The notes beneath the pieces were generated by a model that worked only from the letters and a program-made list of their open reading frames with translations, was not told the origin of the DNA and ran no database searches. Below are positions 10,361-57,710 of a DNA stretch of 64,000 nucleotides, one piece after another. Each line of letters starts with the position of its first letter. The first letter of the stretch is position 1. Made by a program: the position numbers and the translations under genes. This DNA is from Nitrospirota bacterium (GTDB lineage: Bacteria; Nitrospirota; Nitrospiria; 2-01-FULL-66-17), in assembly GCA_049325335.1 (NCBI GenBank), contig JBMOMC010000007.1, positions 1 to 64,000 on the forward strand, in the 5' to 3' direction.

Positions 10361-10361
10361 T

Positions 10362-17431: not shown

Positions 17432-17629
17432 CTATAACTCGACTTGGACCGTATCACGCTTCAGGTCCGTCTCCACCATGCCGGCCTCGACCAGCAGACT
17501 CCCCTCCGGAATGAGATTCTTGGTCCTGAGACGATGGTGAAGGTGATCGGCCCCGTGACCGGACGCCGGGGCAGGGACGATGCAGAGCGCCATCACCACC
17601 AGGATGCCGGTCACGATGACCCGTGTCAT
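17432..17629 (-). CDS. Small exported His-rich protein, possibly a truncated gene
   Basis: ATGA overlap with the RND stop; signal peptide followed by HGADHLHH; ends next to repeat remnants. Confidence 0.5.
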   Translation of the reverse strand: MTRVIVTGILVVMALCIVPAPASGHGADHLHHRLRTKNLIPEGSLLVEAGMVETDLKRDTVQVEL

Positions 17630-20739: not shown

Positions 20740-20751
20740 GCCGGCCTCCGA

Positions 20752-36873: not shown

Positions 36874-36928
36874 CGTCAAAACTCTATCACTCCCGGTTTC
36901 GCCGCGCCACACGCCTACACACGCCTCA

Positions 36929-36937
36929 TGGTATAAT
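36929..36937 (+). promoter_or_regulatory. Extended -10 promoter
   Basis: TGGTATAAT, 36 nt upstream of ATG 36974. Confidence 0.55.
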
Positions 36938-36973
36938 GCCCGGCCACTTCACGATCCGAAAGGATTACAACGA

Positions 36974-37528: not shown

Positions 37529-37536
37529 CACTCTCA

Positions 37537-40580: not shown

Positions 40581-43500
40581 CTACCGTTGCAACATGGACA
40601 CCGGACCAGGAACCGAACCAACGGCGGCTTGCGGCTCGTCGGCGCCGGGAACTTCGGCCGTCTTCCCGCCCACCGTGCCTCCGCCGTTGAGCGGCTGGAT
40701 CTTCCGATCAGCGGCCGGGAGCACCCGGAGGTATCCCCATTGACCGGCCTGCGTATACGGCATCCGGTGGTTCTGCCACACGTAGGTTCCGGGAATATGG
40801 TACGGACCTCCGGCGCCTTCCTTGAGGAAGACATCGAGGTTCTCGGACCCGCCAAACTGCAGCGAGCTCATCATATCCGCCCCTTCCATGTCGGGCTTGA
40901 GCGGCCACTGATGCCCTTCAAGGCTGAACACCTGGTTCTGTTCATTGAACGCGCCGAACACATGGATCCTCACCGGATCTCCGGCGTGCGCCAGAATCGT
41001 CGGCGTGGCCGGCTCGGCGTCGGCCGCGACACAGGGCGTGAACATCAATCCCAGTTCGCAGCCTTGCTCCTCGCGATAGCTCCACGGTTCGATCCGATAG
41101 TTCACGCCGGTCAGCCCCGCGATCTGCTGGATGTAGGGCATGAACGAGGTGCCGATGATGTTGTCCTCATCCTGGAAGAATAATGAGGCGTCGCGGTAGT
41201 CCGATCGCGTGGCGTTCTCCGGAATCGACCGATCGATGATCACGTCGGCCTGCCAGGAGTTCTTGAGCGACACGTCTTCGCCCGTCACGGGGTCGCGATA
41301 CTTCGAACCCTTCGGCCCCACGATGATCGCGCCGAAGAGTCCGTCGCGCACGCCGTTGATGAAATTCCCCCAATCCCACACCAACGCCGCGTTCTCGCCG
41401 TATTGCGGATGCGCGTAGAAGGTGTAGGTCCGGGTCTTGCCGGGCGCCACGGTCTGATCACCCGGGTTGTTGCCCACGTTCACCCCGTGCGAATCCTTCG
41501 GATCGAACGCGAGCATATCCGCGCTGAACGAGGCATTGTCCTTCTTCATCTCGTTCTTCAAGTTGATCTTGACGCAGTCGCCCACGTTCACGTGCAGGGT
41601 TAGCGGCATCGGCTGCGTGCCGCCGGTGGCGACCTTGGACTTCTCACCCTCGAGCATAAAGATCTTGCCCGACGGGTTGCTCACTTGCAGCTTCCGGTCA
41701 AAATCCACCTCGATCACGTCCGGCGCGCTCGGATTGTATTTCAAGGCGCGATCCGCCGCGATCACGCTGAACGTCTTGACCGGAGCATCCGCCGGGCACA
41801 CCGACTTCGCCGAAGCGGGAATCTCGTCACGCCCCGGGAGCTTCTGCAGGTCCTTGGTTTCCTTGTCCAGCACCCGGACGATCCCCCAGCTCCCTTCCGA
41901 GAGGTGGGAGGCTCGGCCGTTGTAGTGCAGGTAATCGCCCGCGATCTGTTGGGCGCCCCCCGCCTTGGTGACCAGGTCATACCGCTCCGCGATTCCGACG
42001 TGCCACGCGTTCTTCAGATCGGATTTTTCCGCGTACCGTTCGGTTCGGAACGCGTGCCCGGCCAAATGCCAGGTATGGCTTTCATTCATCAGCGTGTGCA
42101 ACAGACGGAACACCATGGTGTCGCCGACGTACGCCCGCATCATCGGGGTGCTCGGGTCCTGGTGGGTCTTGCTGGAGAAGATCAACGTCGGATCCGGGTT
42201 GTTCTTCAAACGACGGGCCACGGATTCGGCGCGGAAGTTGAATCCCCCGCCCGTGGTGTGGGTCCCGCCGTTCAACATCTTCACTGCCGCCAGATCCAGG
42301 TCGTACGGCATCTGGAACGAGAGCGTCTGGCCCGCGTCGATCGCGACCTGCACGCTCTGGCCCGGCGGGTTGCCCTCGGTGACCACCTGCGCCGTGGTGG
42401 GCACGGTATCGTGCGGCATCACGACCAATTCCCGGAAGCTCCCGTTGACCCCGTAACCGATCGGCTCGGTGGAGTGAATATCCGCCACCGGCCCGCTGCG
42501 AATCGGTTCTCCCGTCTTGGGATCGTGATACGTGGAGCCGTAGGGCTCCACGATCATGGCGCCGACCCCGCCGTGCGGCCAGGTCGTGGCGCCGAACGAG
42601 TGGTCGTGCCAGAACACGGTCCCGATGTCGGAATCCACCCACATCCGGTATCGGACGAACTCCACCGTGGCGATCTCGTTCTTCTTGTGGTCGAACCGCA
42701 GGGGTTCGGCAAACGTCACGGTGTCGCCCTTGATGTCCTTGATCCAGAGCACCTCCGACGTTTTCACCTCGTCCGCGCCGATCATCAAGTCGGTGCCGAC
42801 GTGAAACGGCGTCGCGTCCTCGGCCATCTTGATCTTGATGGAGGTCGCGCCGGCTCTGACGTCTTCGGTGAGCAGGGCGTTCATGGGCGTCGGAAGGCCT
42901 TTGTGTTTCTCTTTGTGCATCTGGACGAACGGCCGCACCGACTGCTCGTAGGAGAAGCCGGTGATCACGCCGTCCGACGCCTGATTGTCGAACTGAATGA
43001 AGTGCGGGTGGATGTTGATCTTGGACATCTGGAAGTTCGTGGTGTCGTTGTCCACCCATTCGCTCTTGAGAATCACGTCCACGCAGTCGTACACGTTCGC
43101 GCGATAGACCAACGGGATGGTCTTGTCGCCGGACGGGTTGGCGCGAACCTCGTCCTCGTTTTCCTTGAGGACGTAGAGCAAACCGTTCTTGTCGACCACG
43201 GGTTGCTGTTTGCCCAGCCCCTTGGTCAACTGAATGCCGGTCTGAATGAAGTGGATCGTGTACTGCTTGCGTCCCGCGTTTTCCGGGCACAGGCTCCACC
43301 GCCCTTGTTCACCCGGCCGAGCGGGCTGATTCGTCTCCTCGCCGATCGCGCCCTTGCTGCCGGGATCGCTCGCCAAGGCCCCGTTGTTCTTGTCCATGTG
43401 GATCGGTTCCAACCACGGCGCAGGGCCGTGGTGGCGCGCAAACGGCACGCGTTTCCCGAAATGCGGCTTGAAGTGCGGCCACGCCAGCTTACCCGTCTTG

Positions 43501-45503
43501 GCGTCGAATAGGATCGGCGGACGCTTGCCGGGCATCGGCGACTTGTACTTCGGATGGTCGAAGGTGCCGGTCGCTTCCGGCTCGCCCAACGCCTTGTTGC
43601 CGTCCCACGTCCAGTCCCACACGGTCGCGTCGTAGGCCGTGATCTGGCCCTTCTCATCCGCGGTGTGGCCCGGCTGCCCGGCCGGGGGCACCATCATCTT
43701 GACCCAGTCCTTGATCGACACGTCCGGGATCGGCTTGGACCAGTCGGACTTATCCGCGGTGATCTTCCACTTCTTGTCGTACCAATCCATGGTCTTGCCG
43801 ATCAACTGATCGGACGTCACGGCCGGCTTCATCCGGCCCTTGCGATCCGGCAGTTCCAGCAACGGCGGCATCACGTCCGTGCTGCCCATCGGATAATTCC
43901 CGACCTGTAAGACGTTGTACGTCCTGGCGTACCCCCACATCCCGGCCACGTAGTGGTGCGCCACGTGGCAGTGGAAGAGGAAGTCGCCGGCCAGTTGTTG
44001 ACACAACCCGGACCCGCACTCGTTTTGGAGATCGACCACCTCGGTCGGACCGATCACCTGCACGTCCACGCGGTCCGATGTGGTGCGGACCTCGGGGAAC
44101 TTGATCGGCCCGTTCTGCGCCGCGGTCAGGAGAAAATCGGCTTTTCCGTCGGCCTTAGGCTGACGGAGCCAGCGGATGGTTCCGCCGTGCGGGTGGTGCG
44201 AGTGAAACACCTCGCCGCCGCCGTGCACCAACCGCCATTTGACCGGGTCGCCCATGTAGGCGCGGGGGATCGTGGTCGGTACGTCGGCGAACGTGTACGA
44301 GCTGTACGACAGCGACTCGTCTTCGTGATGGAAGTATTTCTCCTGCAACGCCAGGTTGTTCACGCCAAACGGCTCGCTGCGATAGCTGATGGCGCGCGCC
44401 GAGGGGCGATACGCGTCCGTGTTCGGATCGCGCTGCGGAATGGTCTCCCCGCTGCGGTTCAGCGGTCGAAATGACTCGTCGCCGATCTCGTGGTAGAAGA
44501 TCACGAACTCGCGGAAGTCCGGTTTGTCCGGGTGCGCGACCATCATCTGCCACCCGCTCTTGGCTTCCTTGCCGCTGATGGGATCGATGTACGTGGAACC
44601 CATCGGCTCCACGATGAAGGACCCGATCATGCCCAGGCTCGCCTGCTCGCGGCCCACGTGGCTGTGCAGCATGTGCACGCCTTCCTGTTCGGTCGGGCCG
44701 ATGTACCACTCGAACACCTGGCTCTTGCCGGGCGCCACGTTCGCGTCCGGGTTGGCCGCGGTCGCGGGCGCCCCGGTCGACTGCACGATGAAGCTCGATC
44801 CGTGCACGTGCATGCCGACGTCTTCGCCGTCCAACGCGTTGCGCAAGGTGACCACGACGCAGTCGCCCTGGTTGCCGCGGATGTTGAGCGGCTGGATCAC
44901 GTCGGTCTGCATCCCGGTGGTCACGGCGCCGGGATCATAGCCGGGCTTCTTGCGCGCTTCCCGGTTGATCTTCTCCTCCTGCCGGACCTTGTCGATGTTC
45001 TCGGTCAACACGTACATGTAGCCCGAGTGGAAATCGAGCCATTGATTGAGTGTGATCTCCACGTTGATCGCGGAGATGTCGTAGTTTTTGACCGGCGCGC
45101 CCTTGGGACAGCGGCCGCCCATGGAGACCGACTCGCCCGAGGCAGGGCCCAAGAAATAGCTGCGATCCATCTGCTGCATCATGCCCATGCCGCTGAACGC
45201 CCCGCCACCGGTGTGGGTCGCGTGGTCCTCGGTGCCCTTGGCGATCTCGTCCATGAGCTTTTGCATGGCCGCGTCGACTTGATCGCGATGTCCCGACCGG
45301 CCCTCGGCCGTGTCTTCGCGCGCGATCTGGGCCTTGAGCTTGGCCTCCCAGCTTGCGTCCGCCACCTGCGTCGTCCCGGCGGACTCGGCATGGTCCGCAT
45401 GCTCGCCATCATGACCGGGACCGGCGAACACTTTACCCGGCTGGCCGACCAACATCGCGACACCCAACCCGATGCCCCATAGGGCACGTCCGACATTCTT
45501 CAT
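40581..45503 (-). CDS. Giant multi-domain multicopper oxidase, MnxG-like (MCO-2)
   Basis: About 1640 aa from ATG 45503 (GGAGG RBS, signal peptide); MHVHG, HMLHSH, HSHHPHG, HCHVAHHYVAGM, IHPH, WHDH and HTWHLAGH; colinear with MCO-1. Confidence 0.88.
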   Translation of the reverse strand: MKNVGRALWGIGLGVAMLVGQPGKVFAGPGHDGEHADHAESAGTTQVADASWEAKLKAQIAREDTAEGRSGHRDQVDAAMQKLMDEIAKGTEDHATHTGGGAFSGMGMMQQMDRSYFLGPASGESVSMGGRCPKGAPVKNYDISAINVEITLNQWLDFHSGYMYVLTENIDKVRQEEKINREARKKPGYDPGAVTTGMQTDVIQPLNIRGNQGDCVVVTLRNALDGEDVGMHVHGSSFIVQSTGAPATAANPDANVAPGKSQVFEWYIGPTEQEGVHMLHSHVGREQASLGMIGSFIVEPMGSTYIDPISGKEAKSGWQMMVAHPDKPDFREFVIFYHEIGDESFRPLNRSGETIPQRDPNTDAYRPSARAISYRSEPFGVNNLALQEKYFHHEDESLSYSSYTFADVPTTIPRAYMGDPVKWRLVHGGGEVFHSHHPHGGTIRWLRQPKADGKADFLLTAAQNGPIKFPEVRTTSDRVDVQVIGPTEVVDLQNECGSGLCQQLAGDFLFHCHVAHHYVAGMWGYARTYNVLQVGNYPMGSTDVMPPLLELPDRKGRMKPAVTSDQLIGKTMDWYDKKWKITADKSDWSKPIPDVSIKDWVKMMVPPAGQPGHTADEKGQITAYDATVWDWTWDGNKALGEPEATGTFDHPKYKSPMPGKRPPILFDAKTGKLAWPHFKPHFGKRVPFARHHGPAPWLEPIHMDKNNGALASDPGSKGAIGEETNQPARPGEQGRWSLCPENAGRKQYTIHFIQTGIQLTKGLGKQQPVVDKNGLLYVLKENEDEVRANPSGDKTIPLVYRANVYDCVDVILKSEWVDNDTTNFQMSKINIHPHFIQFDNQASDGVITGFSYEQSVRPFVQMHKEKHKGLPTPMNALLTEDVRAGATSIKIKMAEDATPFHVGTDLMIGADEVKTSEVLWIKDIKGDTVTFAEPLRFDHKKNEIATVEFVRYRMWVDSDIGTVFWHDHSFGATTWPHGGVGAMIVEPYGSTYHDPKTGEPIRSGPVADIHSTEPIGYGVNGSFRELVVMPHDTVPTTAQVVTEGNPPGQSVQVAIDAGQTLSFQMPYDLDLAAVKMLNGGTHTTGGGFNFRAESVARRLKNNPDPTLIFSSKTHQDPSTPMMRAYVGDTMVFRLLHTLMNESHTWHLAGHAFRTERYAEKSDLKNAWHVGIAERYDLVTKAGGAQQIAGDYLHYNGRASHLSEGSWGIVRVLDKETKDLQKLPGRDEIPASAKSVCPADAPVKTFSVIAADRALKYNPSAPDVIEVDFDRKLQVSNPSGKIFMLEGEKSKVATGGTQPMPLTLHVNVGDCVKINLKNEMKKDNASFSADMLAFDPKDSHGVNVGNNPGDQTVAPGKTRTYTFYAHPQYGENAALVWDWGNFINGVRDGLFGAIIVGPKGSKYRDPVTGEDVSLKNSWQADVIIDRSIPENATRSDYRDASLFFQDEDNIIGTSFMPYIQQIAGLTGVNYRIEPWSYREEQGCELGLMFTPCVAADAEPATPTILAHAGDPVRIHVFGAFNEQNQVFSLEGHQWPLKPDMEGADMMSSLQFGGSENLDVFLKEGAGGPYHIPGTYVWQNHRMPYTQAGQWGYLRVLPAADRKIQPLNGGGTVGGKTAEVPGADEPQAAVGSVPGPVSMLQR

Positions 45504-45967
45504 GCCACCTCCCCCTTGTTTTCCGACTGCTGAACCGTTCACCCGCGACGTCCGTCCCAGCCCACTCCCAGCCCCGGACGCGGGACGACGGACGCGGTGA
45601 TCCTGCTTGAAAACCTGACCGGGCACGCGGTCCAATGCGAACCTGGCTGGATACAGTCCCTTCCCTATTAGCTTAGATCGGCGAGATGTCCAGCTTGAGG
45701 TGCCTAGAGACATTAATTCCTGCCGACTACCAGTGTTTGGTGTAGACCACTTCGGCCCATGAGGGTGGGCCATTCCACGAATTGGCGGGTCAATTACCAC
45801 GATTAAACAACTACTCGCTGCGCGTCACCTTGTTTCGAACCGTGTATTCGCTCGAACGGACATGTTGGAGCGCTTCCTTATACGCGGATTCCCCTTGGAC
45901 TGTCAAGCAAAAATTTGGACAGTGCACAACGAGTTGGACACACACCAGGCCCAGAGGCGATCGTTAA

Positions 45968-46031: not shown

Positions 46032-46619
46032 ATGAGGGGACGTCGATCGCGATCCGAGCGACCGACTCTTCAGACATGGCCGTTGCTCGGCCGAGCAGTC
46101 CTAACGCTGACGTTAGAACTTGGGATCGCCGGGCAGTCGACGGCGTCGGAGACCACGATCCAGCCTTGCGCCGATCAGCCGGGCGCCGCGACGACCATTG
46201 AAATGACGTTGGCCAAACACTGGAGACCCCGGGCCGCGGAGATCAAGCGCGAACTGCGATCCGGTCCGGGATCGATCACCACGAGGATCGCGTTCACGCC
46301 TATGGCCGCGCCGCCGATGAACATCGGCATTGGCCGGTGCGTGGACGCGGACACGGCTCGGAACGCCATCCGCGCGGCGATCGCGTACAACGGCGGGATC
46401 GAGTACCTGATCTTCCAAGACATCCTGCCGCATCGATGGATCATGATCGGCACGACGCAGGTGGCCGAGCTGTCGTGGACGCGGGTCGGCCGCGAGGACC
46501 TCGATCAGCTCAGCGCGCCCGGGCTCTCCACCGGCGAATTCCAGATGCTCTATCGGACGCTGGCAACCCCGAAAGAGCGCAAGCGGCCGTTCGGGCTCGA
46601 CGCGCCCCCCGCGCCGTAA
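46032..46619 (+). CDS. Exported hypothetical protein (paralog of 36974-37528)
   Basis: Shared NIxIG, YNxG, IxIG and LSTxxFxxLYRxL motifs. Confidence 0.78.
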   Translation: MRGRRSRSERPTLQTWPLLGRAVLTLTLELGIAGQSTASETTIQPCADQPGAATTIEMTLAKHWRPRAAEIKRELRSGPGSITTRIAFTPMAAPPMNIGIGRCVDADTARNAIRAAIAYNGGIEYLIFQDILPHRWIMIGTTQVAELSWTRVGREDLDQLSAPGLSTGEFQMLYRTLATPKERKRPFGLDAPPAP

Positions 46620-46635: not shown

Positions 46636-48657
46636 TTAGGGTGGCGCGCCGGGAGTATCGCTCGCGCACCGAAACCCAATGGTGTCCCGTCGCGTCTCCG
46701 GACTTGCCGCACTGCGGGTGGCGGCGCGCAGCATCACCGGGTCGCTGCGCCACGACCCGCCGCGCACCACCTTGTACCGGCCCCGAACCGGCCCCTTGGG
46801 GTTTCGCTCCGGCATCACCGCGTATTCGTCGGTGCCGCTCCAGTCCGCGACCCACTCGGCCGCATTGCCCGCCATGTTCAGCACACCATGGGGACTCTTT
46901 CCGTCGTCCAACGCGTCGACGGCCGCCAGCGCGCCGAGGCCCGCGTCGCCCCGCCCGAACACCGCGCGCCGCGCGTCCGGAGGGTCGTCGCCCCAGGGGA
47001 ACAATCGCCCGTCCTCCCCGCGGGCGGCTTTCTCCCACTCCGCCTCGGTCGGCAGGCGCCGGCCCATCGCGCGACAATACCGGTCCGCCTCATCCCACGT
47101 GACCCCCACCATCGGCCGGGCCCCGACCTCGGCGTCGACCGACGACGACTCCGCCGCGCGAGCGTCCGGCTGGGCCCGCCACCACCGCATGTAGTCCGAG
47201 ACGTCGACCTCCCGCCGATCGATCGTGTAGCGATCCAACCAAATCCGCCGTTGCGGACTCTCCGTATTGTCATAAGGCAACCACAACCCCGCGGTGGGTT
47301 CACGAGGCTCCGACCCCATCAAAAACCAGCCTGCGGGAATCTCGATCACACAAAGGGGACAGGCTGCTTTTTCACGAAAAAGCAGCCTGTCCCCTTTGTG
47401 CTCCGTGTACCGCGTCAGAAACTCGACGATCTCCCACATCTCCGCGGCGTTGAGTCCGGCGCCGGACGCCATCCGCGCCACGGTCGGCGCCCAGTCCCGC
47501 TGATTCGCGACCACGCGCCAATACGTGGCCTTGCGGCTCAGCGCGGGGTCGGTCCATCCGTGGCAGCCCGAGCATTTCTGAAACACGGCGGGAACAACGG
47601 GCGCGGGCGTTGTCACGGGCCGGACCGGTCGGTCGATCAACGACGCAATGATATCCGCGACGCGTTCCTGGACGACGCGTTCCATGGGAGCGAACCGGCG
47701 TCCCCCGTCCGACGAGAGAACCAGGCCGTGAAAGTGCGTGCCGGCGTAGAGTCGATCGGGATCGGCGGGATCCGCCGCCAAGGTTTCCACGTCATCCTTC
47801 TCGGGAAGCCCTTCGCCCACCTTGGTCCACGTCGCCCCGTGGTCGTCACTGCGATACAGCCCGCGGCGCAACACACTCACGAACACCCGGCCCTCGGGAC
47901 CCGTCATCACGAGCCGAATCCATTGCCGGTCGAATTCTGGCGCCAGGTCCGCCCAGGTTGCTCCTTGGTCCGCTGAACGGAGTACGCCGCGGTGACGCGT
48001 CCCCGCGTAGAGATGACCGCGCCCGTCGGACGCCAACGCCGTGATCGCCGCGTCACGGAGGTCCAGGCCGATCGCGCGCCACCCCCCATCGCGCGCCCCA
48101 CGCGAGAACAACGTCCCTTGCCCCAACCACACCTCTGAAGACCGCGAAAGAAACGCCGCGAGCACTTCCCCTCCCATCGCGGGCAGTCCCTGGCCGTACG
48201 CGGTCCACCGCGCGCCCTCGTCGAGGGTTTGGAACACGTCGCCGGTGGAGGTGGCGACGATCAGGCGTTCGGGGCGCGCGGGATCGAGGTATATGGCGTG
48301 GATGTTGGCGTTGCCCAACCCCGCGCTCACGGCTTCCCAGGTGCGCGCCCCATCGCGGGTGCGATACACCCCGCCGCCGTAGGTGCCCACGTACGCCACG
48401 TTCGCGTTGGTCGGATGCACGACCACGTGATACGCGCTGGTATTGAGCATTCCCTCCCGCGCGGGCAACCAGGTGCGTCCGCGGTCCGCGCTCTTGAGCA
48501 CGCCGACGGGACGGCCCGCCGCGTACAAGACCGCTGGGTTCGAGGGCGCAATCGCGATCTGGTTGATCAGCACCGGTTCGGAAACCGAGATATCCTGCGC
48601 CGCGACCGACGTCGCGAACCAGCTCCCCGCGACCAGCGCGGCCGCGACCCGCCTCAC
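46636..48657 (-). CDS. Fusion: BNR/Asp-box beta-propeller, monoheme cytochrome c and FGE-sulfatase (SUMF1)-like domain
   Basis: Repeated SxDxGxTW; CSGCHGWTD; IPAGWFLMG, RLPTEAEWEKAARG, MAGNAAEWV, RGGSW and GFRC; GTGA overlap at the start. Confidence 0.85.
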   Translation of the reverse strand: MRRVAAALVAGSWFATSVAAQDISVSEPVLINQIAIAPSNPAVLYAAGRPVGVLKSADRGRTWLPAREGMLNTSAYHVVVHPTNANVAYVGTYGGGVYRTRDGARTWEAVSAGLGNANIHAIYLDPARPERLIVATSTGDVFQTLDEGARWTAYGQGLPAMGGEVLAAFLSRSSEVWLGQGTLFSRGARDGGWRAIGLDLRDAAITALASDGRGHLYAGTRHRGVLRSADQGATWADLAPEFDRQWIRLVMTGPEGRVFVSVLRRGLYRSDDHGATWTKVGEGLPEKDDVETLAADPADPDRLYAGTHFHGLVLSSDGGRRFAPMERVVQERVADIIASLIDRPVRPVTTPAPVVPAVFQKCSGCHGWTDPALSRKATYWRVVANQRDWAPTVARMASGAGLNAAEMWEIVEFLTRYTEHKGDRLLFREKAACPLCVIEIPAGWFLMGSEPREPTAGLWLPYDNTESPQRRIWLDRYTIDRREVDVSDYMRWWRAQPDARAAESSSVDAEVGARPMVGVTWDEADRYCRAMGRRLPTEAEWEKAARGEDGRLFPWGDDPPDARRAVFGRGDAGLGALAAVDALDDGKSPHGVLNMAGNAAEWVADWSGTDEYAVMPERNPKGPVRGRYKVVRGGSWRSDPVMLRAATRSAASPETRRDTIGFRCASDTPGAPP
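47349..47400. repeat. Perfect 25-bp inverted repeat inside a CDS
   Basis: CACAAAGGGGACAGGCTGCTTTTTC-AC-GAAAAAGCAGCCTGTCCCCTTTGTG. Confidence 0.9.
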
Positions 48658-49910
48658 CGCGAAAACTCGATGAGCCGAGCGAGGGATTCGGCCCGTCCCG
48701 TTCGATAGTCCTTCCACGCGACCAGATACCCGGGCCCGCCGGCCGCCGCCGTGGAGAAGTGATTGCCCTTCGAGGCCGGGGCGACCGTAAACGCCGCGGG
48801 GGGCGTTGCGCCGCCGGTCCACCGCGCCGCGCGCACGTCTCGGGTGATATCCGTGATCTTGCTCATCTTCGCGTCGGACGGGTGCTCTTCTTCCCAGACG
48901 ACCAAACAGTCCTTCGCTCGACATGCCACGAATGGGAACATGTGCAGACGCGGCGAGGACGAGAGCGCGATGCCGTCCGGCTGCATCACGCGGCCGTTCG
49001 GCGCCAGGGCCGCGCCGTACAGCGCGTAGATGCCGCTGCGCTTATCAACCCAAACAATCACGCTGTGGCCGCTGGAGTCTGCGGGCGCCCCAACCGCCGG
49101 ATACCCCTGCTCGCCCGCCGCGGTGGATATCGCGATCGCGGCGGGATCCAGCACGCGGCCCGTTTCGTCCACACGCGCCGCGGCGACATCGGTCTCATCT
49201 CCTCGCGCGTTCATCCACGTCACCACAAACGCGCGCCCGTTCCACGCCACCGCGGGACGCGATTGGTCTCCCGTCCCGCCACCCACGATGATGCCCCTAG
49301 GATCAATGACGCGGCCGTCCGGCGCGATTCGAGAGCCGACAACGTCCCACCCCATCTCCGGACGCTCCTGCATCCATACCGCGAAGAACACCCGGCCGTT
49401 CCACGCCACGCGCGGATGCCGGCGATTACCCGATCCCACCCCGACGGCCAGGCCGTCGGGGTCGAACACGGTCCCGTCGGAACGCACGCGCGCCCCGTAA
49501 ATTTCCCAGTTGCGTCGACTGCGTAAATCCTGCCAGACCACCAGGTGCGCGTCACCGCCCCACGCCACGTCGGGAAACAACGTGTCGGACGGACCTTCTG
49601 CGATGGGAAATCCGTCCGGAGACGCCACCGCGCCATCGGCTTCCACCCACGTCCCGTAAATGTCGCTGGGACCGCGCCGCGTGGACTGCCAGACCACCAA
49701 AAACCGCGACCCGTTCCACGAGGGCACCGGATCTTCTTCCTCATCGGCCGCGCGCGAGGACACCACGATCTCGGACCCCATGTTCGGGGGGCCGTCGAGC
49801 GCGGCGTCCATCCGCGGCGGCGATCCGGCGCACCCCGCGATCACGGCCGCGACGAACGCCACCCCCATCACGGATCGGCCGGCCGAGTCCAGTCGCCTCC
49901 GTACGCTCAC
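48654..49910 (-). CDS. Lipoprotein with tandem PxVAWNGxxFLVVW repeats (probable beta-propeller)
   Basis: Lipobox IAGC; about seven repeats of P.V.W.G..FLVVW...R....IYGARV..DG.V.DP.G; GTGA overlap. Confidence 0.78.
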   Translation of the reverse strand: MSVRRRLDSAGRSVMGVAFVAAVIAGCAGSPPRMDAALDGPPNMGSEIVVSSRAADEEEDPVPSWNGSRFLVVWQSTRRGPSDIYGTWVEADGAVASPDGFPIAEGPSDTLFPDVAWGGDAHLVVWQDLRSRRNWEIYGARVRSDGTVFDPDGLAVGVGSGNRRHPRVAWNGRVFFAVWMQERPEMGWDVVGSRIAPDGRVIDPRGIIVGGGTGDQSRPAVAWNGRAFVVTWMNARGDETDVAAARVDETGRVLDPAAIAISTAAGEQGYPAVGAPADSSGHSVIVWVDKRSGIYALYGAALAPNGRVMQPDGIALSSSPRLHMFPFVACRAKDCLVVWEEEHPSDAKMSKITDITRDVRAARWTGGATPPAAFTVAPASKGNHFSTAAAGGPGYLVAWKDYRTGRAESLARLIEFSR

Positions 49911-50881
49911 CGAGGCACCGCCGCGATGCCCAACAACCCGTCCGGCGCGTCGGTTTCCAGCCACGCCGTGACTCGGCGCGCCACGACATCGATCACCGCC
50001 ACGCGGTTGGTGCGACGATGCGTGACGTACACGTGGGCGCCGTCGGGGGAGACCGCGACCCCCCACGGCGCGGGACCCACCGCCACCACGGCCGTTTCAT
50101 GATCGGCGGCGGTGGACACCACCGATACCGTGTCCGACCCGCTGTTGGCCACATACGCGGCGGCCCCGTCGGGGGACATCGCAATGCCGGTGGGATTGAC
50201 GCCGACCGGCACGGTCGACACCACGGTGTCCCGCGCGGTGTCGATGACCGACACCGACCCCGCGCCCTGGTTAGTCACGTACGCGAACCGCCCGTCGATC
50301 GACAACGCGATGTCCACGGGAAACATCCCCACCGGAATCGTGTTCACGACTCGATACGCCATGGTGGACACCACCGACACCATCCCGGAGAAATAATTGA
50401 CCACGTACGCCGCGGGCCGCCGGGGAATCGCCGCAACCGCCACCGGTCTCGGACCCGCGCGGGGCCGGCCCAACGATTGACCGCTCGTCGTGGAGATGAC
50501 CGACAACGTGTGATCGGCCAGGTTAGCCACGAACAATGCCCGGCCGTCCGGCGAGACGTCCACGGCTTGCGGCAACCCGCCGGCCTCCACGCGTTCGACC
50601 GCATGTGTGTCCGTGTGGATCGCGGCCACGCTGCGGCCCCGGCCGCCCACGTAGACCATGGTGCCGTCCGGCGACACCGCGACGTCCCACGGCTTACGAA
50701 TCTCCGGGATTCGCACCGTGGGGGCGCGGCCGCTCGGATCCAGCACCACCACGCTATCCGAGTCCGGATCCGCGACATACAGGAGCGGCCCGCGCGCGCC
50801 GACGCACCCGATCAGTCCGACCGCGGCCACGGCGCCGATGACGGCCTCCTTCAACGCGTGTACGCCCCGACGTGGTCTCAT
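49907..50881 (-). CDS. YVTN/YncE-type beta-propeller lipoprotein
   Basis: Lipobox LIGC; repeats P.GxAxSPDG..xYVxN....VSVI. Confidence 0.9.
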   Translation of the reverse strand: MRPRRGVHALKEAVIGAVAAVGLIGCVGARGPLLYVADPDSDSVVVLDPSGRAPTVRIPEIRKPWDVAVSPDGTMVYVGGRGRSVAAIHTDTHAVERVEAGGLPQAVDVSPDGRALFVANLADHTLSVISTTSGQSLGRPRAGPRPVAVAAIPRRPAAYVVNYFSGMVSVVSTMAYRVVNTIPVGMFPVDIALSIDGRFAYVTNQGAGSVSVIDTARDTVVSTVPVGVNPTGIAMSPDGAAAYVANSGSDTVSVVSTAADHETAVVAVGPAPWGVAVSPDGAHVYVTHRRTNRVAVIDVVARRVTAWLETDAPDGLLGIAAVPR

Positions 50882-52212
50882 TCGTTCTCCTGTGACGAAT
50901 AGTTCGTGAGGAACTCCGCGACTTCAGCTTCCTCCGCGGACGACAGCCCCGCGATCCGCGCCATACGGCGCACGGTGCGACGCCAGTCCCGACGGTTCGG
51001 CGGGACCAACCAAAAACTATGCGGCGCTTGGTTGATGGCCGGGTCGGTCCACCCGTGGCAAGCGTTACACTTGGCGAACGCGGCCGGCGCAACCACGCCG
51101 GACGGGGGGCGAGAGGCATCGCGGACTTTCAGCGACGCGATGATCGTCTCGGCGTCCACCCTCGGCGCCCGCCCCAACGTCCGCCACGACGCGCCGCCGT
51201 CCTCGGTGAGCACGACGCCGTGGCCGTGCGTGCCGGCGAACACGCGGCGGGGATTCGCCGGGTCCGGGACCAACGCACGAACGTCGGGGAGCGGCAGCCC
51301 CGCGTTTCGCGGCTCCCACGTTCGGCCCCCATCCTCGCTACGCAACACCCCATCGCCGGACGTGGCCGCGTAGACCAAGGCGCTTCGGGAGTCAAACCAC
51401 AGCCGGCGAATCCACGCGCGGGAGAGGTCGCCGCGATCCCATCGAGCCCACGTGGTGCCCAAATCCTCACTGACGAACAGGCCCCCGCCTTCCAACGTCC
51501 GGCCGTCGCGCAACGCGGCCGCGAACACCCTCCGGCCGTCCGGGTGCGCCATCAGCACCGTGATCGGCCGACCTTGGAGATCGGGCGACGCGATCGTCCA
51601 CGACGGCTCACCGGGGCGCCGACGCCACACGCCGAATTCGGACGCGAGCAGCGCGGTATCGGGATCGCCGGGCACGATCACGAGGTCCTGGTACTGCTGG
51701 CTCTGCGAAAACGTGTCCCCCTCGTTCCACGCGGACCAGGTCTCGCCGCGGTCCGGACTGACGAACACGCCGGTGGAGGTCACCACGAATACGCGGTCGG
51801 GGTCCCCCGGATGCAACACGATCGCGCCGATGTTGGTATTGCCCAGGCCGTTGTTGCGCTCCACGAACGTCTCGGCCCCGTCCACGCTTCGGTACAGCCC
51901 CCCGCCGCCCGCGCCGACGTATACCAGGTCTGGATCTCTCGGGTCCACCACGAGACGATAGAGCGAATAACTGCGGATCCCGCGGTTCGCGGTGTCCCAC
52001 CGTTGTCCTCGATCCCCGCTTTTGAGCAACCCGATGCTGTAATTGGTCAATGCCAACACGCGGTCCGGGCGCTCCGGGTGCAGGGCAATCTGCGACACAA
52101 ACAGCGACTGCGTCGCCGGTTCGCCGACCGCATCCATCGCAGGCCTGGTCGCGCCCGAACACGCGATCAGGCTCACGACCGCCGCGCCCACCGCCCAGCG
52201 GCGGACCGTCAT
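50878..52212 (-). CDS. BNR beta-propeller lipoprotein with C-terminal monoheme cytochrome c domain
   Basis: Lipobox LIAC; SxDxGxTW repeats; CNACHGWTD...W..TVRRM; ATGA overlap. Confidence 0.85.
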   Translation of the reverse strand: MTVRRWAVGAAVVSLIACSGATRPAMDAVGEPATQSLFVSQIALHPERPDRVLALTNYSIGLLKSGDRGQRWDTANRGIRSYSLYRLVVDPRDPDLVYVGAGGGGLYRSVDGAETFVERNNGLGNTNIGAIVLHPGDPDRVFVVTSTGVFVSPDRGETWSAWNEGDTFSQSQQYQDLVIVPGDPDTALLASEFGVWRRRPGEPSWTIASPDLQGRPITVLMAHPDGRRVFAAALRDGRTLEGGGLFVSEDLGTTWARWDRGDLSRAWIRRLWFDSRSALVYAATSGDGVLRSEDGGRTWEPRNAGLPLPDVRALVPDPANPRRVFAGTHGHGVVLTEDGGASWRTLGRAPRVDAETIIASLKVRDASRPPSGVVAPAAFAKCNACHGWTDPAINQAPHSFWLVPPNRRDWRRTVRRMARIAGLSSAEEAEVAEFLTNYSSQENE

Positions 52213-53441
52213 GGCGTCGCGGGAGCGCGCCGGGGCGACGCCGCGTCCAACGCGGCGCGGTAGATCCACGCGCGCGGAGGCATGGCCGTGCCCGCGTACA
52301 ATGCGCCGCCGAACGCGTGCAGGGCTTCCACTGTAAACGGGGTTAAGTCCCCCACCTCATCCCAGGATCGGCCGTCCCGGCTGCGCAACACGCGTCCGTT
52401 GACGGACGCGAACAGCCCGTCGGCGGCCCCGGCCATCGACGCCACGTAGCCGGTGCGCGCGCCGTGGGATGCGGTCGTCCCATACACGCGCTCCCAGACG
52501 TCGTTCCCGGACGTCCTCCAGATCTCGCCCCGGCTCGTAGTGCCCACATACAGGCGTTCGTCGGACACCGCCGCCGCGCGCACGCCCATGAACGGCCCCG
52601 ACGTCCCGCGCGCCGGCGTCCAGACGGTCCCGTCTCGACTCGTAAACACCCCGGCGCCCTCGATCCCGGCATACAACCGGCCGTTGAAGGCGATCAAAAA
52701 CCGCACCCAGTTGGCAAAGCCGTTCTCCGCGTTCGCCAGCAGCGTCCCGGACAAGGCCCACGCGCGTCCGTCCGTGGTCCGATACACGCGGCCGCGCGTG
52801 GTCCCGGCGTACAACGCGTCCCCGAACACGCCCAAGGCGATAATGCCGCGTTCCTCCGGCGGCAGCACCGCCTCGCGCGTCCAGCGCTCCCCGTCTCCGC
52901 TGCTCCACACCTCGGCGCTCGGTTGATTCGTCCCCGCGAATAACCGGTCGCGAAATGTCATCAACCCATACACCGTGTACGCATCCGTCGTCAAGACCGG
53001 CCGCCAGGACCGGCCGTCCACCAGTTGCAACGCGGACCCCGCGCCTTCAATCCCGGCGTACAACCGGCCGCGAAACGACCGCAAGGCCACCACGTTCCAG
53101 CCTTGGGGTGCCGGCTCCAACGGCTCCCACGCCATGGCCGAGACCTTGGAATATCTGGCCGTCAGAAACCGCTCCAGATCCGACCGCTCGTCATCGCTCA
53201 TCCGGCATCCCATGGCCCGCATCCACGACAACACGAGCGACCAGGGCCTCGGCTCGATCGCGTGGCTGCGCGCGGCGCAATCGCCGGCCACGCAGCGGCT
53301 CTCGATCGTCACCCCGTGGCACGCGCCGCACCGCGAGGTGATCACGGCCATGCCGCGCGCTTCAAGCGTGGCCTCCTGGACCGCGCCCACGCTCACCGGC
53401 GCCGTGGCCAGCAGCACCATCACCGCATGCGCCGGCCTCAC
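52209..53441 (-). CDS. N-terminal monoheme cytochrome c domain plus beta-propeller
   Basis: CGACH...W..VL.WM...M...E..DL..FL; repeats F.GRLYAG and S.DG..W; GTGA overlap. Confidence 0.8.
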   Translation of the reverse strand: MRPAHAVMVLLATAPVSVGAVQEATLEARGMAVITSRCGACHGVTIESRCVAGDCAARSHAIEPRPWSLVLSWMRAMGCRMSDDERSDLERFLTARYSKVSAMAWEPLEPAPQGWNVVALRSFRGRLYAGIEGAGSALQLVDGRSWRPVLTTDAYTVYGLMTFRDRLFAGTNQPSAEVWSSGDGERWTREAVLPPEERGIIALGVFGDALYAGTTRGRVYRTTDGRAWALSGTLLANAENGFANWVRFLIAFNGRLYAGIEGAGVFTSRDGTVWTPARGTSGPFMGVRAAAVSDERLYVGTTSRGEIWRTSGNDVWERVYGTTASHGARTGYVASMAGAADGLFASVNGRVLRSRDGRSWDEVGDLTPFTVEALHAFGGALYAGTAMPPRAWIYRAALDAASPRRAPATP

Positions 53442-54742
53442 GGCCTGCGCGTCCGGCTGTACGCGCTCAAGTACCGGATGACGGCCGCGCGCTCCGCCGG
53501 CGTGAGTTCCGCGCGTTGGGCCATGCGGTCCACGGTGGGCGCCCAATCCCGCGCGTTGGGCGGCATACGCCAATACGTGTGTTTGCCGTTGAGCGGCTCA
53601 TCGGTCCATCCGTGACACCGGTTGCACTTGGCGAATCCTGGCGGTGCCGCGGTCGGCGCCGCCGAATGCGCGCGGGCGTCGAGCATGGCGACGATTCCCG
53701 ACATAGTCAGCGGCGCGACGGGCTCCGACGCATGCCACGTCTCGCCGCGGTCGTGGGAGTAATACCAACCCGCCGCGGTTGTGCCGACTACCAGACGGGA
53801 CGGATCAGCGGGATGGACCGCCAAGCTCCGCACGTCGGGATCGAGCACGCCGCCCCCCACCGGCGTCCACGTCGTCCCTCCGTCGCTCGAGGCGAAGACG
53901 CCCGCCCCTCTCGTCGACGCATACACCCGCGCGGGGTCCCGCGAATCCGGGACCACGCGGCTGACGAACCACTCCGGATCGCCGATCCGGCGCCACGCGC
54001 GACCGGTCTTGACGTGGATGCCCTGTTTGATCGTCCCCACCAACACGCGGCCGTCGCGCGGGTCGCACACCACGGTGGTCACCCGCGCGGAACCCAGATC
54101 GGGATCCCTCATCCACCGCGCCCCCCCGCGTTCGCGCCGAAACAAGCCGCCCTCGGTGCCCAACCAGATCCTGCCGCTCGGTGACGGCTCGATCGCCAAT
54201 GACTTGTATCCCACCGCCTCTGACAACGGGGGCAACCCTTGGCCGAATCCTTCCCAGTGCGCTCCCCCGTCGCGCGAGCGGTACACGTCGGTGGACGCCG
54301 CCGCGTACCAGGTCTCGCCGTCCGTCGGGTCGATGGCCAACGCGTCGATCGCGGTATTCGGCAAATCGCCGTTGCGTTCGCTCCACGTGGCCGCGCGATC
54401 CACGCTGATCGACACCCCGCCGCCCCACCCGCCCGCCAGGAGGACCGCCTCCATACCCGCGCGCGGCGCCGCGAGCAACGCGTGATGGGTAAAACTTCTC
54501 AACCCGCGGTTGGCGTGCGCCCACCGCCGGCCGCCGTCAACGCTCGCGAACACGCCCATATTGCTGGTAATGGCGTAGAATCGATCGGAATCACCGGGGT
54601 CCGCCGCGACCTGGTGGATGATCAGCGGGCGCTCAAGAATCTCATCGGCCCCCACGGCAACGGGCGCGGTGCCCAGCGCCGCGATAAGAACGGCGAGGCC
54701 CGCGGCCGGACCACCCGGCTTGGTGAGGTCGGTCGCGGGCAC
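53438..54742 (-). CDS. BNR beta-propeller protein with C-terminal monoheme cytochrome c domain
   Basis: Signal peptide; SxDGGxxW repeats; CNRCHGWTD...WAPTVDRM; GTG start 4 nt after the rmlD stop (inferred). Confidence 0.83.
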   Translation of the reverse strand: MPATDLTKPGGPAAGLAVLIAALGTAPVAVGADEILERPLIIHQVAADPGDSDRFYAITSNMGVFASVDGGRRWAHANRGLRSFTHHALLAAPRAGMEAVLLAGGWGGGVSISVDRAATWSERNGDLPNTAIDALAIDPTDGETWYAAASTDVYRSRDGGAHWEGFGQGLPPLSEAVGYKSLAIEPSPSGRIWLGTEGGLFRRERGGARWMRDPDLGSARVTTVVCDPRDGRVLVGTIKQGIHVKTGRAWRRIGDPEWFVSRVVPDSRDPARVYASTRGAGVFASSDGGTTWTPVGGGVLDPDVRSLAVHPADPSRLVVGTTAAGWYYSHDRGETWHASEPVAPLTMSGIVAMLDARAHSAAPTAAPPGFAKCNRCHGWTDEPLNGKHTYWRMPPNARDWAPTVDRMAQRAELTPAERAAVIRYLSAYSRTRRP

Positions 54743-54746: not shown

Positions 54747-55583
54747 TTAGGCCCCGTCGGGTCGGGCGCGGAGATAGTCGGCCAGCGCGTCCTGCCACGG
54801 CCGAAACCGAACGCCCAGACCGGCCAACTTGGCGCAGCCCAGGACCGCATGCGCGGGGCGCTTGGCCGGACGCGCCAGCTCCGTGGTCGAGATGGGCACG
54901 ACCCGCCGATCGAGACCGGCCGACCGGAGAATCGCGACCGCGAATTCGTGCCACGAACACGTCCCCGAATTGACCGCGTGGAAAATCCCCGTGGCTCGAA
55001 CATCGAGCAGCGCGCGGATCGCACGCGCCAGATCCTCGGCCCATGTGGGCGAGCCGACTTGATCGCTCACGATGCGAAGTTCGTCGCGCTCCGCGGCCAA
55101 TCGCAGGATCGTGCGCACGAAATTTTTCCCCTCACCGTACAGCCACGCGGTGCGCAGGATCACGGCATCGGGTTTGGCCGCAAACGTTTCGCGTTCTCCC
55201 GCAAGCTTGCTCGCCCCGTAGACGCCAAGCGGCGCAACCGGGTCGTCCTCGAGGTACGGGGTGGTCTTGGCACCGTCGTACACGTAGTCGGTGGACATCG
55301 CGATCAGACGCGCGCCGACCTTGGCCGCGGCTTGCGCCACCAGGCGCGAACCTTCGGCGTTCACGGCGTAGGCCCGGACGGGATTCGCCTCGGCCCCGTC
55401 CACGTCGGTGTATGCCGCGCCGTGGATCACCACATCCGGCCGGGATGCCGCGATCCGCTCCATGATCGCCGGCTGCGTGATGTCGGCTTCGCGCTCCGGC
55501 GGCGCGGTCAACTCGTGATCGGCCAGGACGCGTTGCAGGGCCAGTCCGAGTTGGCCGGTAGCTCCGGTGATAAAGATACGCAT
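54747..55583 (-). CDS. rmlD: dTDP-4-dehydrorhamnose reductase
   Basis: ITGATGQLG, AAYTDVD.AE, STDYVYDG, YGASK, LRTAWLYG and DQVGSPT. Confidence 0.95.
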   Translation of the reverse strand: MRIFITGATGQLGLALQRVLADHELTAPPEREADITQPAIMERIAASRPDVVIHGAAYTDVDGAEANPVRAYAVNAEGSRLVAQAAAKVGARLIAMSTDYVYDGAKTTPYLEDDPVAPLGVYGASKLAGERETFAAKPDAVILRTAWLYGEGKNFVRTILRLAAERDELRIVSDQVGSPTWAEDLARAIRALLDVRATGIFHAVNSGTCSWHEFAVAILRSAGLDRRVVPISTTELARPAKRPAHAVLGCAKLAGLGVRFRPWQDALADYLRARPDGA

Positions 55584-55602
55584 AGTGAGATCACGCCGTT
55601 GG

Positions 55603-55630
55603 GTAGGGGGGCACGGCCGTGCGCCCCTAC
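55603..55630. repeat. GTAG-family REP palindrome overlapping the rmlB stop
   Basis: GTAGGGGGGCACGGCCGTGCGCCCCTAC. Confidence 0.75.
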
Positions 55631-56634
55631 GGTGACGCGACGGCGCGGTACTGCTTTTCGTAGTACGCTCGAAACTCGCCGGACTTGATCGGCCGCCACC
55701 AGGACTCGTGGGTGCGGTACCAGTCGATGGTCGCGCGGATCGCATCCTCGAACCCCCGGCGCGGCCGAAATCCGAGCGCGGCCAACTTCTCCGCGCTGAT
55801 GGCGTAGCGGCGGTCGTGCCCGGGCCGGTCGGCCACGGGCTTGATCAGGCTTTTCGGCTTGTTCAGGCCGGCCAGGATCAGATCGGTGATCTCGATATTG
55901 GTGCGCTCGTTCCCGCCACCGATGTTGTAGATCTCCCCGATCACGCCGCGCCGCAGCACCAGGTCCACGCCCTCGCAATGATCCCCCACCGCGAGCCAGT
56001 CGCGCACGTTCAGCCCGTCGCCATACAGCGGCAGCGGCTGATCGTCGATCGCGTTGGTGATGAACAATGGAATGAGTTTTTCCGGGTACTGGTACGGCCC
56101 GAAGTTGTTGGACGCCCGCGTAATGAGCACGGGCACGCCGTAGGTGGTGTGGTACGCCATCGCCATCAAATCGCCGCCCGCTTTGGACGCGGCATAGGGG
56201 CTGCTCGGGTGCAGCGGATCGGTTTCTTTGAACGGCGCGCCCAACGTGGAGCCGTAGACCTCGTCGGTGGAAATCTGGAGATACCGGTGATGCCGGTAGC
56301 GCCGTGCGGCCTCCAACAACACACGCGTGCCGTCCACGTCGGTCTTGATGAACGAGCCCGGATCGAGCAGCGACCGGTCCACATGGGTTTCGGCCGCGAA
56401 GTTCACAATCGCGTCCACGTCCTTGGCCGCGAGATCCACCGCCTCGGGGTCGCAGATATCGCCCTGGATGAACCGGTACCGCGGGTCCTTGGCCGCGTCC
56501 GCGACGTTTTCAGGATTGCCGGCGTACGTCAACTTGTCGAGGTTGACGACCGAATCCTCCGGGTGCGTGCGCAACACGTACCGGATGAAGTTGCTGCCGA
56601 TGAACCCGCACCCGCCGGTAACGAGCAGCCTCAT
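55627..56634 (-). CDS. rmlB: dTDP-glucose 4,6-dehydratase
   Basis: VTGGCGFIGSN, DKLTYAGN, AAETHVDRS, STDEVYG, PYAASK and DRPGHDRRY. Confidence 0.97.
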   Translation of the reverse strand: MRLLVTGGCGFIGSNFIRYVLRTHPEDSVVNLDKLTYAGNPENVADAAKDPRYRFIQGDICDPEAVDLAAKDVDAIVNFAAETHVDRSLLDPGSFIKTDVDGTRVLLEAARRYRHHRYLQISTDEVYGSTLGAPFKETDPLHPSSPYAASKAGGDLMAMAYHTTYGVPVLITRASNNFGPYQYPEKLIPLFITNAIDDQPLPLYGDGLNVRDWLAVGDHCEGVDLVLRRGVIGEIYNIGGGNERTNIEITDLILAGLNKPKSLIKPVADRPGHDRRYAISAEKLAALGFRPRRGFEDAIRATIDWYRTHESWWRPIKSGEFRAYYEKQYRAVASP

Positions 56635-57710
56635 GTGAGTTCGATCCTGCTTTGATCGCCCACGATGAATTTTTGCGTTCTGGGTTTGGTCGCGCACCGC
56701 ACGATTTCCACCTCACGCCCCAACAGGCTTCGCTCGATCCGGTTGTACGCGTCGATGATCCGGCCCCGTTCCAGTACGATGCTGTACTCGACCTCGCTGT
56801 TGCGCAGCACGCAGTCTGCGCCGATCGCGGTGAACGGCCCCACGTAGGAATTCTCGACCACGGTGCGCGCGCCGATCACCGCCGGCCCGCGGATCTGACT
56901 CCCGATAATCGTGGCGCCCGGTTCCAGAATGACCTTGCCCGCGATGTCGGACTTCTCGTCCACTTGGCCGGGGCCGAACGGCTCAGGCTGCTCGCGGATC
57001 TTATCGAGCGCGAGCCGATTGGCTTCCAGCAAGTCCTCGGGTTTTCCGGTGTCCTTCCACCAGCCCGTGATCTCGGAGTAACCCACGCGGTGTCCGTGTT
57101 CCAAAAGGTATTGGTGGGCGTCCGAGATCTCCAACTCGCCGCGCGCGCTGGGCCTGATGGCATTCACCGCCTCGAAAATGTGTCGGTCGTAAATGTAGAT
57201 CCCGGTCACGGCGAAGGTGCTCTTGGGCTGCGCGGGTTTCTCCTGCACGCCGACCAACCTGCCGTCGAGGAGTTCCGGCACGCCGAACCGTTCCGGGTCG
57301 CGCACGCGCGCGAACACCAGCCGGCAGTGATCCTGGTCCCGCGAGAATTCGTCGATGAACTGGCGGATCCCACCCACGATCACGTTGTCCCCCAGGTAAA
57401 ACACGAACGGCTCGTTGCCGATGAACTCCTGGGCCACGCGCACCACGTGCGCCAGCCCGCGCGGCGCATCCTGCACCACGTACGTGAGCTTAAGCCCCCA
57501 GGCTTCGCCTCCGCCGAGCGCCTGACGGATCTCCTCACCGGTGTCGGGGTTGATCACGATGCCGACTTCTCGTATGCCCGCGTCCGCGACCGACTCGAGG
57601 GCGTACGCGATCATCGGTTTATTCGCGATCGGGATGAGGTGTTTGTTGGAGGTGTGGGTGATCGGCCGCAGGCGGGTCCCCTTGCCGCCGGCCGTAATCA
57701 ACGCTTTCAT
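56631..57710 (-). CDS. rmlA: Glucose-1-phosphate thymidylyltransferase (long form)
   Basis: AGGKGTRLRPIT...K, GLAH, LGDN, EKP, PSARGELEI and WWKDTG; C-terminal beta-helix. Confidence 0.93.
   Translation of the reverse strand: MKALITAGGKGTRLRPITHTSNKHLIPIANKPMIAYALESVADAGIREVGIVINPDTGEEIRQALGGGEAWGLKLTYVVQDAPRGLAHVVRVAQEFIGNEPFVFYLGDNVIVGGIRQFIDEFSRDQDHCRLVFARVRDPERFGVPELLDGRLVGVQEKPAQPKSTFAVTGIYIYDRHIFEAVNAIRPSARGELEISDAHQYLLEHGHRVGYSEITGWWKDTGKPEDLLEANRLALDKIREQPEPFGPGQVDEKSDIAGKVILEPGATIIGSQIRGPAVIGARTVVENSYVGPFTAIGADCVLRNSEVEYSIVLERGRIIDAYNRIERSLLGREVEIVRCATKPRTQKFIVGDQSRIELT

Follow-up and report, generated by a model that had tools for sequence, protein, structure and literature searches.

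What kind of system is encoded by six overlapping genes for exported beta-propeller proteins, several of them bearing a heme c domain, in the Nitrospirota assembly GCA_049325335.1? The genes (G1-G6) lie on the minus strand of contig JBMOMC010000007.1, within the 64,000-nucleotide stretch analysed here (positions 1 to 64,000 of the forward strand, hereafter the window), and an earlier note on this DNA had proposed an undescribed periplasmic enzyme complex. Comparison with related genomes revealed that the system is real, conserved, lineage-restricted and larger than the six-gene finding. The account we tentatively lean towards is a type II-exported monoheme electron relay docked on a giant adhesin, of which G1-G6 would be the scaffold half.

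The six-gene operon was confirmed from the coordinates of the open reading frames (ORFs). All five junctions are GTGA/ATGA overlaps of 4 nt, and the starts at all five open signal-like N-termini, as judged by eye. By rough gene calls, 434/1517 (0.286) of the close tandem pairs in this genome permit a 4-nt overlap, which would give five in a row by chance at ~0.002; across the loci of the system 35/74 close junctions permit one, the window's five counted in. The GC content of the operon was 68-70%, versus ~62% in its flanks. G1 (53438-54742, 434 aa) has a signal peptide and G3 (50878-52212, 444 aa) a lipobox-like signal, each followed by a Vps10/BNR (Asp-box) beta-propeller and a C-terminal type-A monoheme c domain. 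G6 (46636-48657, 673 aa; signal peptide) combines the same propeller and heme domain with a C-terminal domain resembling formylglycine-generating enzyme (FGE), and the three paralogues share 36-39% pairwise identity over ~425 aa. G2 (52209-53441, 410 aa) carries, behind its signal peptide, an N-terminal type-B monoheme c domain and then a propeller. G4 (49907-50881, 324 aa) is a heme-free YVTN-repeat propeller lipoprotein without conserved His, and G5 (48654-49910, 418 aa) has a lipobox-like signal and W-Q-D-x-R repeats and belongs to no Pfam family.

The reading of all six proteins as propellers stood for G1, G3, G4 and G6 through family matches and for G2 through its AlphaFold model, which is seven-bladed by strand pattern and best structural matches. 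The fold search with G2 returned generic propellers only, led by virginiamycin B lyase (Z 29.9, rmsd 2.6, 281 aligned, 11% identity) and followed by WD40 proteins (Z 26-28). For G5 the sole match was a sub-threshold repeat family (TIGR04275, E 5.6e-6), making it a probable propeller; a profile search found no solved relative (best E 0.14), and its Atlas neighbours were unnamed clusters with low recognition. Lipobox-like motifs were present in three of the proteins (LIAC18 in G3, LIGC26 in G4, IAGC27 in G5), although in relatives they were only partly conserved (G4 6/8, G5 8/13, G2 1/15, A-type 14/66). As only part of each subunit set carries the motif, membrane tethering appears to be common rather than universal. 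G5 is a single-copy core member that is fused to other subunits in relatives. G4 is a variable part found in eight loci, and this patchy occurrence led us to drop it as a core component.

The heme domains of G1 (53447-53650, CxxCH at 53626-53612, putative distal Met in TV.RM), G3 (50887-51093) and G6 (47395-47601) are of type A, and that of G2 (53127-53366, CxxCH at 53330-53316) is of type B, all on the minus strand; CxxCH falls at residues 373, 382, 362 and 38, respectively, and the motif was not found in G4 or G5. The kinship proposed between the domain shared by G1, G3 and G6 and the N-terminal domain of G2 was upheld by hhalign (A-B 95.5%), which also linked both to a third type, C, found on the giant protein described below (A-C 93.2%, B-C 84.2%). 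Type B has an additional conserved Cys pair. Across 69 type-A propeller-plus-heme units, a set picked by hidden Markov model (HMM), the R, W, R and M of RDW..TV.RM were invariant and the C, C and H of the heme motif were conserved at 0.99; an alternative alignment (A2) was chosen by the pattern CxxCHGWTD, making its GWTD invariance circular. Partial or overlapping loci (L062, L064, L066-L069; L and G labels with three digits are ours for loci and genomes) were left out of the alignments, and five duplicate loci out of the counts. The Met of the W..V..M helix was retained in 69/69 type-A, 62/63 type-B and 20/20 type-C domains. This architecture, CxxCH followed by the W..V..M helix and an L...E...I..FL helix, is that of QhpA/SorB-type domains; the family scores were weak (PF09098 at best E 1.4e-4; 28/47 members matched at E up to 1). 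The nearest solved relative was the alpha subunit of quinohemoprotein amine dehydrogenase (QHNDH; E 0.045), and a PDB search with the heme domain as a single sequence gave chance matches only. The likeness to QHNDH noted earlier was thus recovered, the conserved Met aligning with Met43 of QhpA, which we take to be the axial ligand of heme I. An invariant Met favours six-coordinate electron carriers, with putative His/Met ligation.

Profiling with the heme-domain HMM demonstrated that the system is lineage-restricted. The type-A profile matched 8/401 genomes drawn from the phylum and 20/151 relatives of the same class, and neither of the two largest families sampled (0/54 and 0/25). Among the 151 class genomes, heme A occurred in 20, G2 in 19, and G5 and head C in 16 each; 22 held any part and 14 held all four, several of the gaps coinciding with a contig end or with a genome that is incomplete. 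These counts are given without a statistical test, since related genomes are not independent. All titled records with these genes were from Nitrospirota. A type-A search of 1.84 billion representatives returned 44 matches with an E value no higher than 1e-10, almost all of them linked to a propeller or fragmentary, and the weaker matches were multi-repeat SorB/QhpA-like cytochromes. Every named full-length homologue was from Nitrospirota and bore an automatic label, as did the named homologues of G2, nearly all ‘hypothetical protein’, with one partial G2 labelled Ca. Manganitrophaceae.

Far from being scattered, the gene sets were conserved across several families. A quick IQ-TREE run placed G1, G3 and G6, as well as a fourth paralogue that this genome lacks, in clades of their own, each drawn from three to four families (SH-aLRT 98-100), which argues that all of these are old, non-redundant subunits. 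Natural fusions joined G1 to G2 (L028, L045), G5 to G1 and G2 (L049, L053), and G3 to G5 and G6 to G1 (L030, L031), and a five-module protein of 1,589 aa (P0123) combines G5 and G2 with two A-type units. In the G1+G2 fusions heme A is directly followed by heme B, forming a tandem diheme unit like that of QhpA. Gene sets, orthologue clades, fusions and the QhpA/SorB-type heme domain together support the proposal of a conserved, multi-subunit, exported heme c complex.

The six genes are nevertheless not the complete unit that they had been taken for, because they have a conserved partner, a secreted protein of giant size with a heme cap. Clustering of neighbouring genes identified a large protein (1,000-1,800 aa) in 16/26 loci, consisting of a type-C heme head, FN3 and then variable cargo, namely FG-GAP with ~104-aa choice-of-anchor Z repeats (over cut-off, 145 vs 30 bits), YVTN with CARDB, or PD40/MopE; its stalk can equally be described as variable Ig/FG-GAP/CARDB domains. 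Types A and C co-occurred in 15/151 genomes and lay on the same contig within ~10 kb in 14 of the 15, both genes being at contig ends in the fifteenth. In a minimal locus (G019), G2 is followed directly by the giant gene. In this genome the giant gene (1,329 aa) is on another contig (C2, ~381,050-385,040), and the gene immediately after it is a paralogue of G3 (56-58% identity). Most loci outside this family hold core and giant genes together (L026, L028-L031, L033, L044, L045, L049), so that the operon in the window is the bigger part of a system that is divided in this genome. The giant gene and G3 paralogue on C2 span ~381,050-386,420 (L037:5051-10424); before them come genes for a cytochrome c peroxidase-like protein, thioredoxin and a Cu-type P-ATPase on the other strand.

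The head of the giant protein was modelled with high confidence (pLDDT 92), although its fold searches were filled by matches to the FN3 part, and Atlas matches stayed under 0.9. One stalk homologue (L061, 1529-5365, minus strand; 42% identity over 1,016 aa), encoded upstream of a type-A gene, has a cupredoxin head that keeps all four type-1 copper ligands (H..C..H..M). When L030, L031, L033, L044 and L057 are set against L021-L024, L026, L045 and L047, loci without the G4 YVTN gene mostly encode YVTN-like propellers as part of the giant protein; L028 and L029 have neither YVTN form.

Structure prediction supports docking of G2 on the heme head of the giant protein. The modelled complex (G2, head C and two hemes) scored a median of 0.69 against 0.01 for the best of three controls, with runs sharing at least 87% of contacts and partner pLDDT of at least 88. 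The score mark is reached by 116/157 solved and 2/215 mismatched pairs, a calibration that is approximate here given our own alignments and the heme ligands. In the predicted pose the head presents its CxxCH and helix 60-72 to the top-face loops of the G2 propeller, with CxxCH at the rim; Lys68 of the head, invariant in 20/20 sequences, is among the best-resolved predicted contacts, and His18 of the G2 heme domain lies within the interface. Conservation was higher in the interface loops of G2 (0.63) than in its remaining loops (0.51; permutation P = 0.03), and in profile searches neither chain had a close solved relative that could have supplied the pose.

The giant protein is likely exported by type II secretion, as judged by genomic association. 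It has a Sec-type signal, additional conserved Cys, domains typical of surface proteins and a Ser+Thr content of 25%, and no C-terminal anchor was recognised by eye. A GspC-like gene with HR and PDZ similarity (NF041515, E 7e-12 to 2e-14) occurred in six loci of five genomes (L030, L031, L033, L044, L054 and, truncated, L026), and in L054 it adjoins two giant genes with no propeller genes within 20 kb. The type II secretin gene gspD was over cut-off in 5/5 genomes, and the GspC query recovered gspC beside gspD in 5/5; in G016 the GspC-like gene of the locus is additional to that housekeeping copy.

The system matched no named one, in agreement with the earlier note, and the tests on QHNDH, cytochrome cd1, hydrazine synthase, PQQ enzymes and the omcE cluster all came out negative. 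QHNDH (QhpA/B/C/D; PDB 1JJU, 1JMX) shares QhpA/SorB-type heme domains, a tandem diheme like that of the G1+G2 fusions and the combination of heme domains with Ig-like domains and propellers, whereas the propellers here are of Vps10/BNR type and come with a gspC paralogue and a variable stalk of giant size; no gamma peptide was seen, in a screen of ORFs above 60-100 aa. Against TIGR03908 (QHNDH alpha) G1 scored 15.9 vs 274.35 bits and the other five genes gave no match; against TIGR03907 (beta) G4 scored 40.8 vs 223.2 bits; and QhpD was over cut-off in 0/5 genomes (best 82.8 vs 453), as in no control genome. The heme subunits matched Vps10/BNR instead of the cd1 propeller family PF02239, of which G4 covers 54/368 positions with neither CxxCH nor the conserved His, and the nirS profile found nothing in the five genomes or in the controls. 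Hydrazine synthase profiles matched G4 only (117.5 vs 560 for beta, a generic YVTN match), with no match to alpha or gamma. No Pfam family of PQQ dehydrogenases matched, and pqqC was over cut-off in 0/5 genomes and in no control. NxrA/NarG-type and MtrB-type (PF11854) genes were likewise found in 0/5 genomes. The copper propeller enzymes (TcDH, lactonase-type NosZ) have a conserved His ring; the G1 clade keeps three His, and the L-NosZ profile gave G4, which lacks the conserved His, 70 vs 700 bits.

Among systems for electron transfer outside the cell, PgcA of Geobacter is described as extracellular ‘heme-tethered redox strings’ of separate monoheme domains, two of them His/Met (PMC10570954). 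By that description its domains are joined by Pro/Thr linkers in one diffusing chain, whereas the present system distributes them among separate propeller subunits and a stalk; distant matches of our heme profile included PKD proteins with 12-14 monoheme repeats. The omcE nanowire cluster is reported to pair a secreted cytochrome with beta-propeller lipoproteins, often near glycosylation genes, and to occur also in Nitrospirota (PMC13712944). Its tetraheme OmcE, multiheme cytochromes and large beta-barrel, as given there, have no counterpart in these loci, which instead encode Asp-box propellers with their own monoheme domains, one CxxCH per module. The best solved sequence relatives of the G1, G3 and G6 propellers were sortilin/Vps10, YCF48 and GH74 xyloglucanases, matches due to the shared Asp-box repeat and none with heme c; the likeness to GH74 and sialidase Asp-box hydrolases, which use a catalytic Asp pair or an Arg triad, was at the level of the repeat only. 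MtrC and OmcA are decaheme surface cytochromes exported by the type II secretion system and tied to the MtrB barrel; they share the proposed route and location with the system here, which is monoheme and has no MtrB. No description of the system was found in full-text papers; supplementary gene tables, which could list the genes, were outside that search.

In the electron relay that we tentatively favour, Asp-box propellers would arrange single His/Met heme c domains as a chain whose last link is the heme head of the giant protein. The one-electron path would run from heme A of G1 to heme B of G2 and on to heme C, a course suggested by the A-B tandem diheme of the G1+G2 fusions; G3 and G6 would extend the chain, G4 and G5, lipoproteins in many members, would tether it, and the heme-free stalk, whose ~8 repeats would span about 30 nm at textbook domain dimensions, would attach to mineral, matrix or cell. 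A stronger version, in which five to seven monoheme domains clipped by propeller top faces form a wire on interchangeable heme c or blue-copper giant adhesins with their own GspC, we consider somewhat doubtful. Several observations weigh against the relay. The GspC-like family scores fall below cut-off (46-54 vs 150 bits), the paralogue is absent from the loci of this genome, and elsewhere in this genome the query finds the housekeeping copy only. The stalk bears no heme and so cannot conduct, two stalk homologues in L025 have non-redox heads, and the surface location is deduced from domain types only. No return path over the outer membrane is encoded in the loci, which have no conserved barrel, an OMP-barrel gene lying upstream in two f6 loci only. 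On the head side of the predicted interface conservation (0.59) shows no excess over the domain average (0.57), and the modelled interface is one of many. Finally, paralogue-specific polar rings, made of residues that each paralogue retains where its blades begin, could be catalytic: G2 conserves N92, Y134, R223, R264, Y308 and E348 in 63-66/66 homologues, the G1 clade keeps H12/H56/H57 (alignment numbering) at what appear to be top-face positions, the G6 clade keeps N12/Q13/R29/H101, and G5 keeps EEE, H281 and EE. In the two f6 genomes the locus (L057:368-6390, L066:6059-13239) stands after a LolA-like/DUF1302/MMPL/OMP-barrel set and before moaA.

These polar residues bear on the original suggestion of an enzyme, a possible though rather unlikely reading in which a multi-subunit redox enzyme, periplasmic or surface-displayed, would have its active site at a propeller top face closed by the heme domain, as in QHNDH, cd1 or TcDH; the monoheme domains would carry electrons off and the giant protein would position the enzyme. 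The QHNDH alpha subunit as nearest heme-domain relative fits such a reading, as does a secreted 630-aa protein with two CxxCH hemes in a second locus type (L036:3570-5468, L035:4245-6131, L076, L078), which is of no known family (no Pfam, NCBIfam or PDB match). Yet this gene was not found in the genome studied here (G000), and the 69 type-A propellers conserve, at 90% or more, only Gly, Pro, Trp, Leu and the S, D and T of the Asp box, with no catalytic-type residue. PqqC and QhpD remained under cut-off in five genomes, radical-SAM, MauG and small cofactor-peptide genes were not conserved in the loci, and all hemes keep the putative distal Met. The G2 pocket is moreover predicted to contact the invariant Lys68 of its partner, which would explain its conservation without catalysis; the paralogue-specific residues and the diheme protein fit either specific docking or catalysis. 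We hold it unlikely that the system is instead a machine for export, maturation or retention of giant adhesins, with propellers binding the head in the manner of sortilin or YCF48 and passing it to a dedicated GspC, and hemes oxidising Cys pairs or making release redox-dependent. The Vps10/YCF48 type of the propellers, the constant head and variable cargo of the giant proteins, the arrangement in L054, the other giant repeat proteins in L025, L061 and L062, and the position of the f1 loci after sugar-nucleotide genes all speak for it. However, five to seven conserved His/Met hemes exceed the need of a chaperone, stalk proteins without a heme head occur in the same loci, and the existence of a cupredoxin in place of the head suggests a role in one-electron chemistry, not in sorting. 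As for the giant multicopper oxidase (MCO)/cupredoxin cluster beside the operon, the earlier expectation that the two are partners did not hold up. The cluster adjoins the operon in every one of the four genomes that represent this genus, each of the two loci of G031 has cupredoxin/carboxypeptidase-like genes at its flanks, and the FGE domain of G6 resembles FGE genes near such clusters. Nevertheless, the giant MCO occurred in 144/151 genomes and the system in at most 22, no MCO gene was seen in loci of other genera, many of them on short contigs, an opposite-strand gene (46032-46619) separates operon and cluster in the window, and in G002 the adjacent gene is the other MCO paralogue. A dedicated electron partnership is therefore very improbable, and we dropped it as a conserved feature, adjacency being limited to the genus and MCO near-universal in the class.

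Several neighbouring and additional features were recorded. Upstream of G1 lie rfbA-rfbB-rfbD (54747-57710, minus strand), dTDP-rhamnose genes that are also upstream of G1 in four family-f1 relatives with that flank covered, two of them without rfbB. The start of G1 is 4 nt past the rfbD stop, so the transcript probably begins further upstream; a promoter and terminator scan of the locus gave signal no better than shuffled sequence. The FGE-like domain of G6 (46660-47349, minus strand; PF03781, E 3e-42) reads RGGSWRSDPVMLR. Formylglycine-generating enzymes have a catalytic Cys pair after RGGSW, and its absence from G6, as described earlier, was verified; EgtB, PvdO, GldK and SenA profiles all scored below cut-off on this domain. 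Only G000 and G001 have it fused; G003 has it separately, and the loci of G002 and of other families showed no sign of it except for a single 37% match in L032. Being a local fusion, it was dropped as a core part. Giant MCOs (1,600-1,740 aa; window 28466-33283 and 40581-45800, also on contig C44 of G000) are highly conserved in the class. The MCO1 cluster is flanked by genes for two paralogous small secreted proteins (46032-46619 and ~36,770-37,530, both plus strand; 35% identical, no Pfam family), with a homologue in G002 between G6 and MCO. A copper/metal island (window 5097-23129) holds CopB, a CopA-type MCO, a P-type ATPase with YHS, FMN-binding proteins and a CusCBA-like RND system. The second locus type with the 630-aa diheme gene, found in G006 and G009, places it beside PD40 and FG-GAP propeller genes, and homologues occur in G021 and G447. 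Elsewhere in G000 are two proteins with P-x-FAR...CxxCH (C1 122666-124123, C6 94998-96434), presumably a Cyc2-like motif, and 11-, 14- and 24-heme cytochromes. These include the 14- and 24-CxxCH proteins at C43 87041-92946 and a 5/4/11-CxxCH cluster with OmcS/OmcE-type likeness by eye (C1 236334-246983). A 3-CxxCH protein at C2 91924-94506 resembles, by eye, a hydrazine synthase alpha homologue.

Non-nitrifying Nitrospiria are reported to predominate in aquifers (PMC11033732). A lineage-restricted heme system with a defined predicted interface, Lys68 of the head against the top face of G2, offers a handle on how uncultured Nitrospiria gain energy. Were the system an enzyme, it would constitute a new heme-propeller family without a known cofactor pathway; were it a relay, it would add one more type of architecture, so far undescribed, to those that move electrons out of cells. 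If the wire reading were true, non-nitrifying subsurface Nitrospiria would perform extracellular electron transfer without multiheme cytochromes or a dedicated barrel, invisible to current gene screens for this trait.

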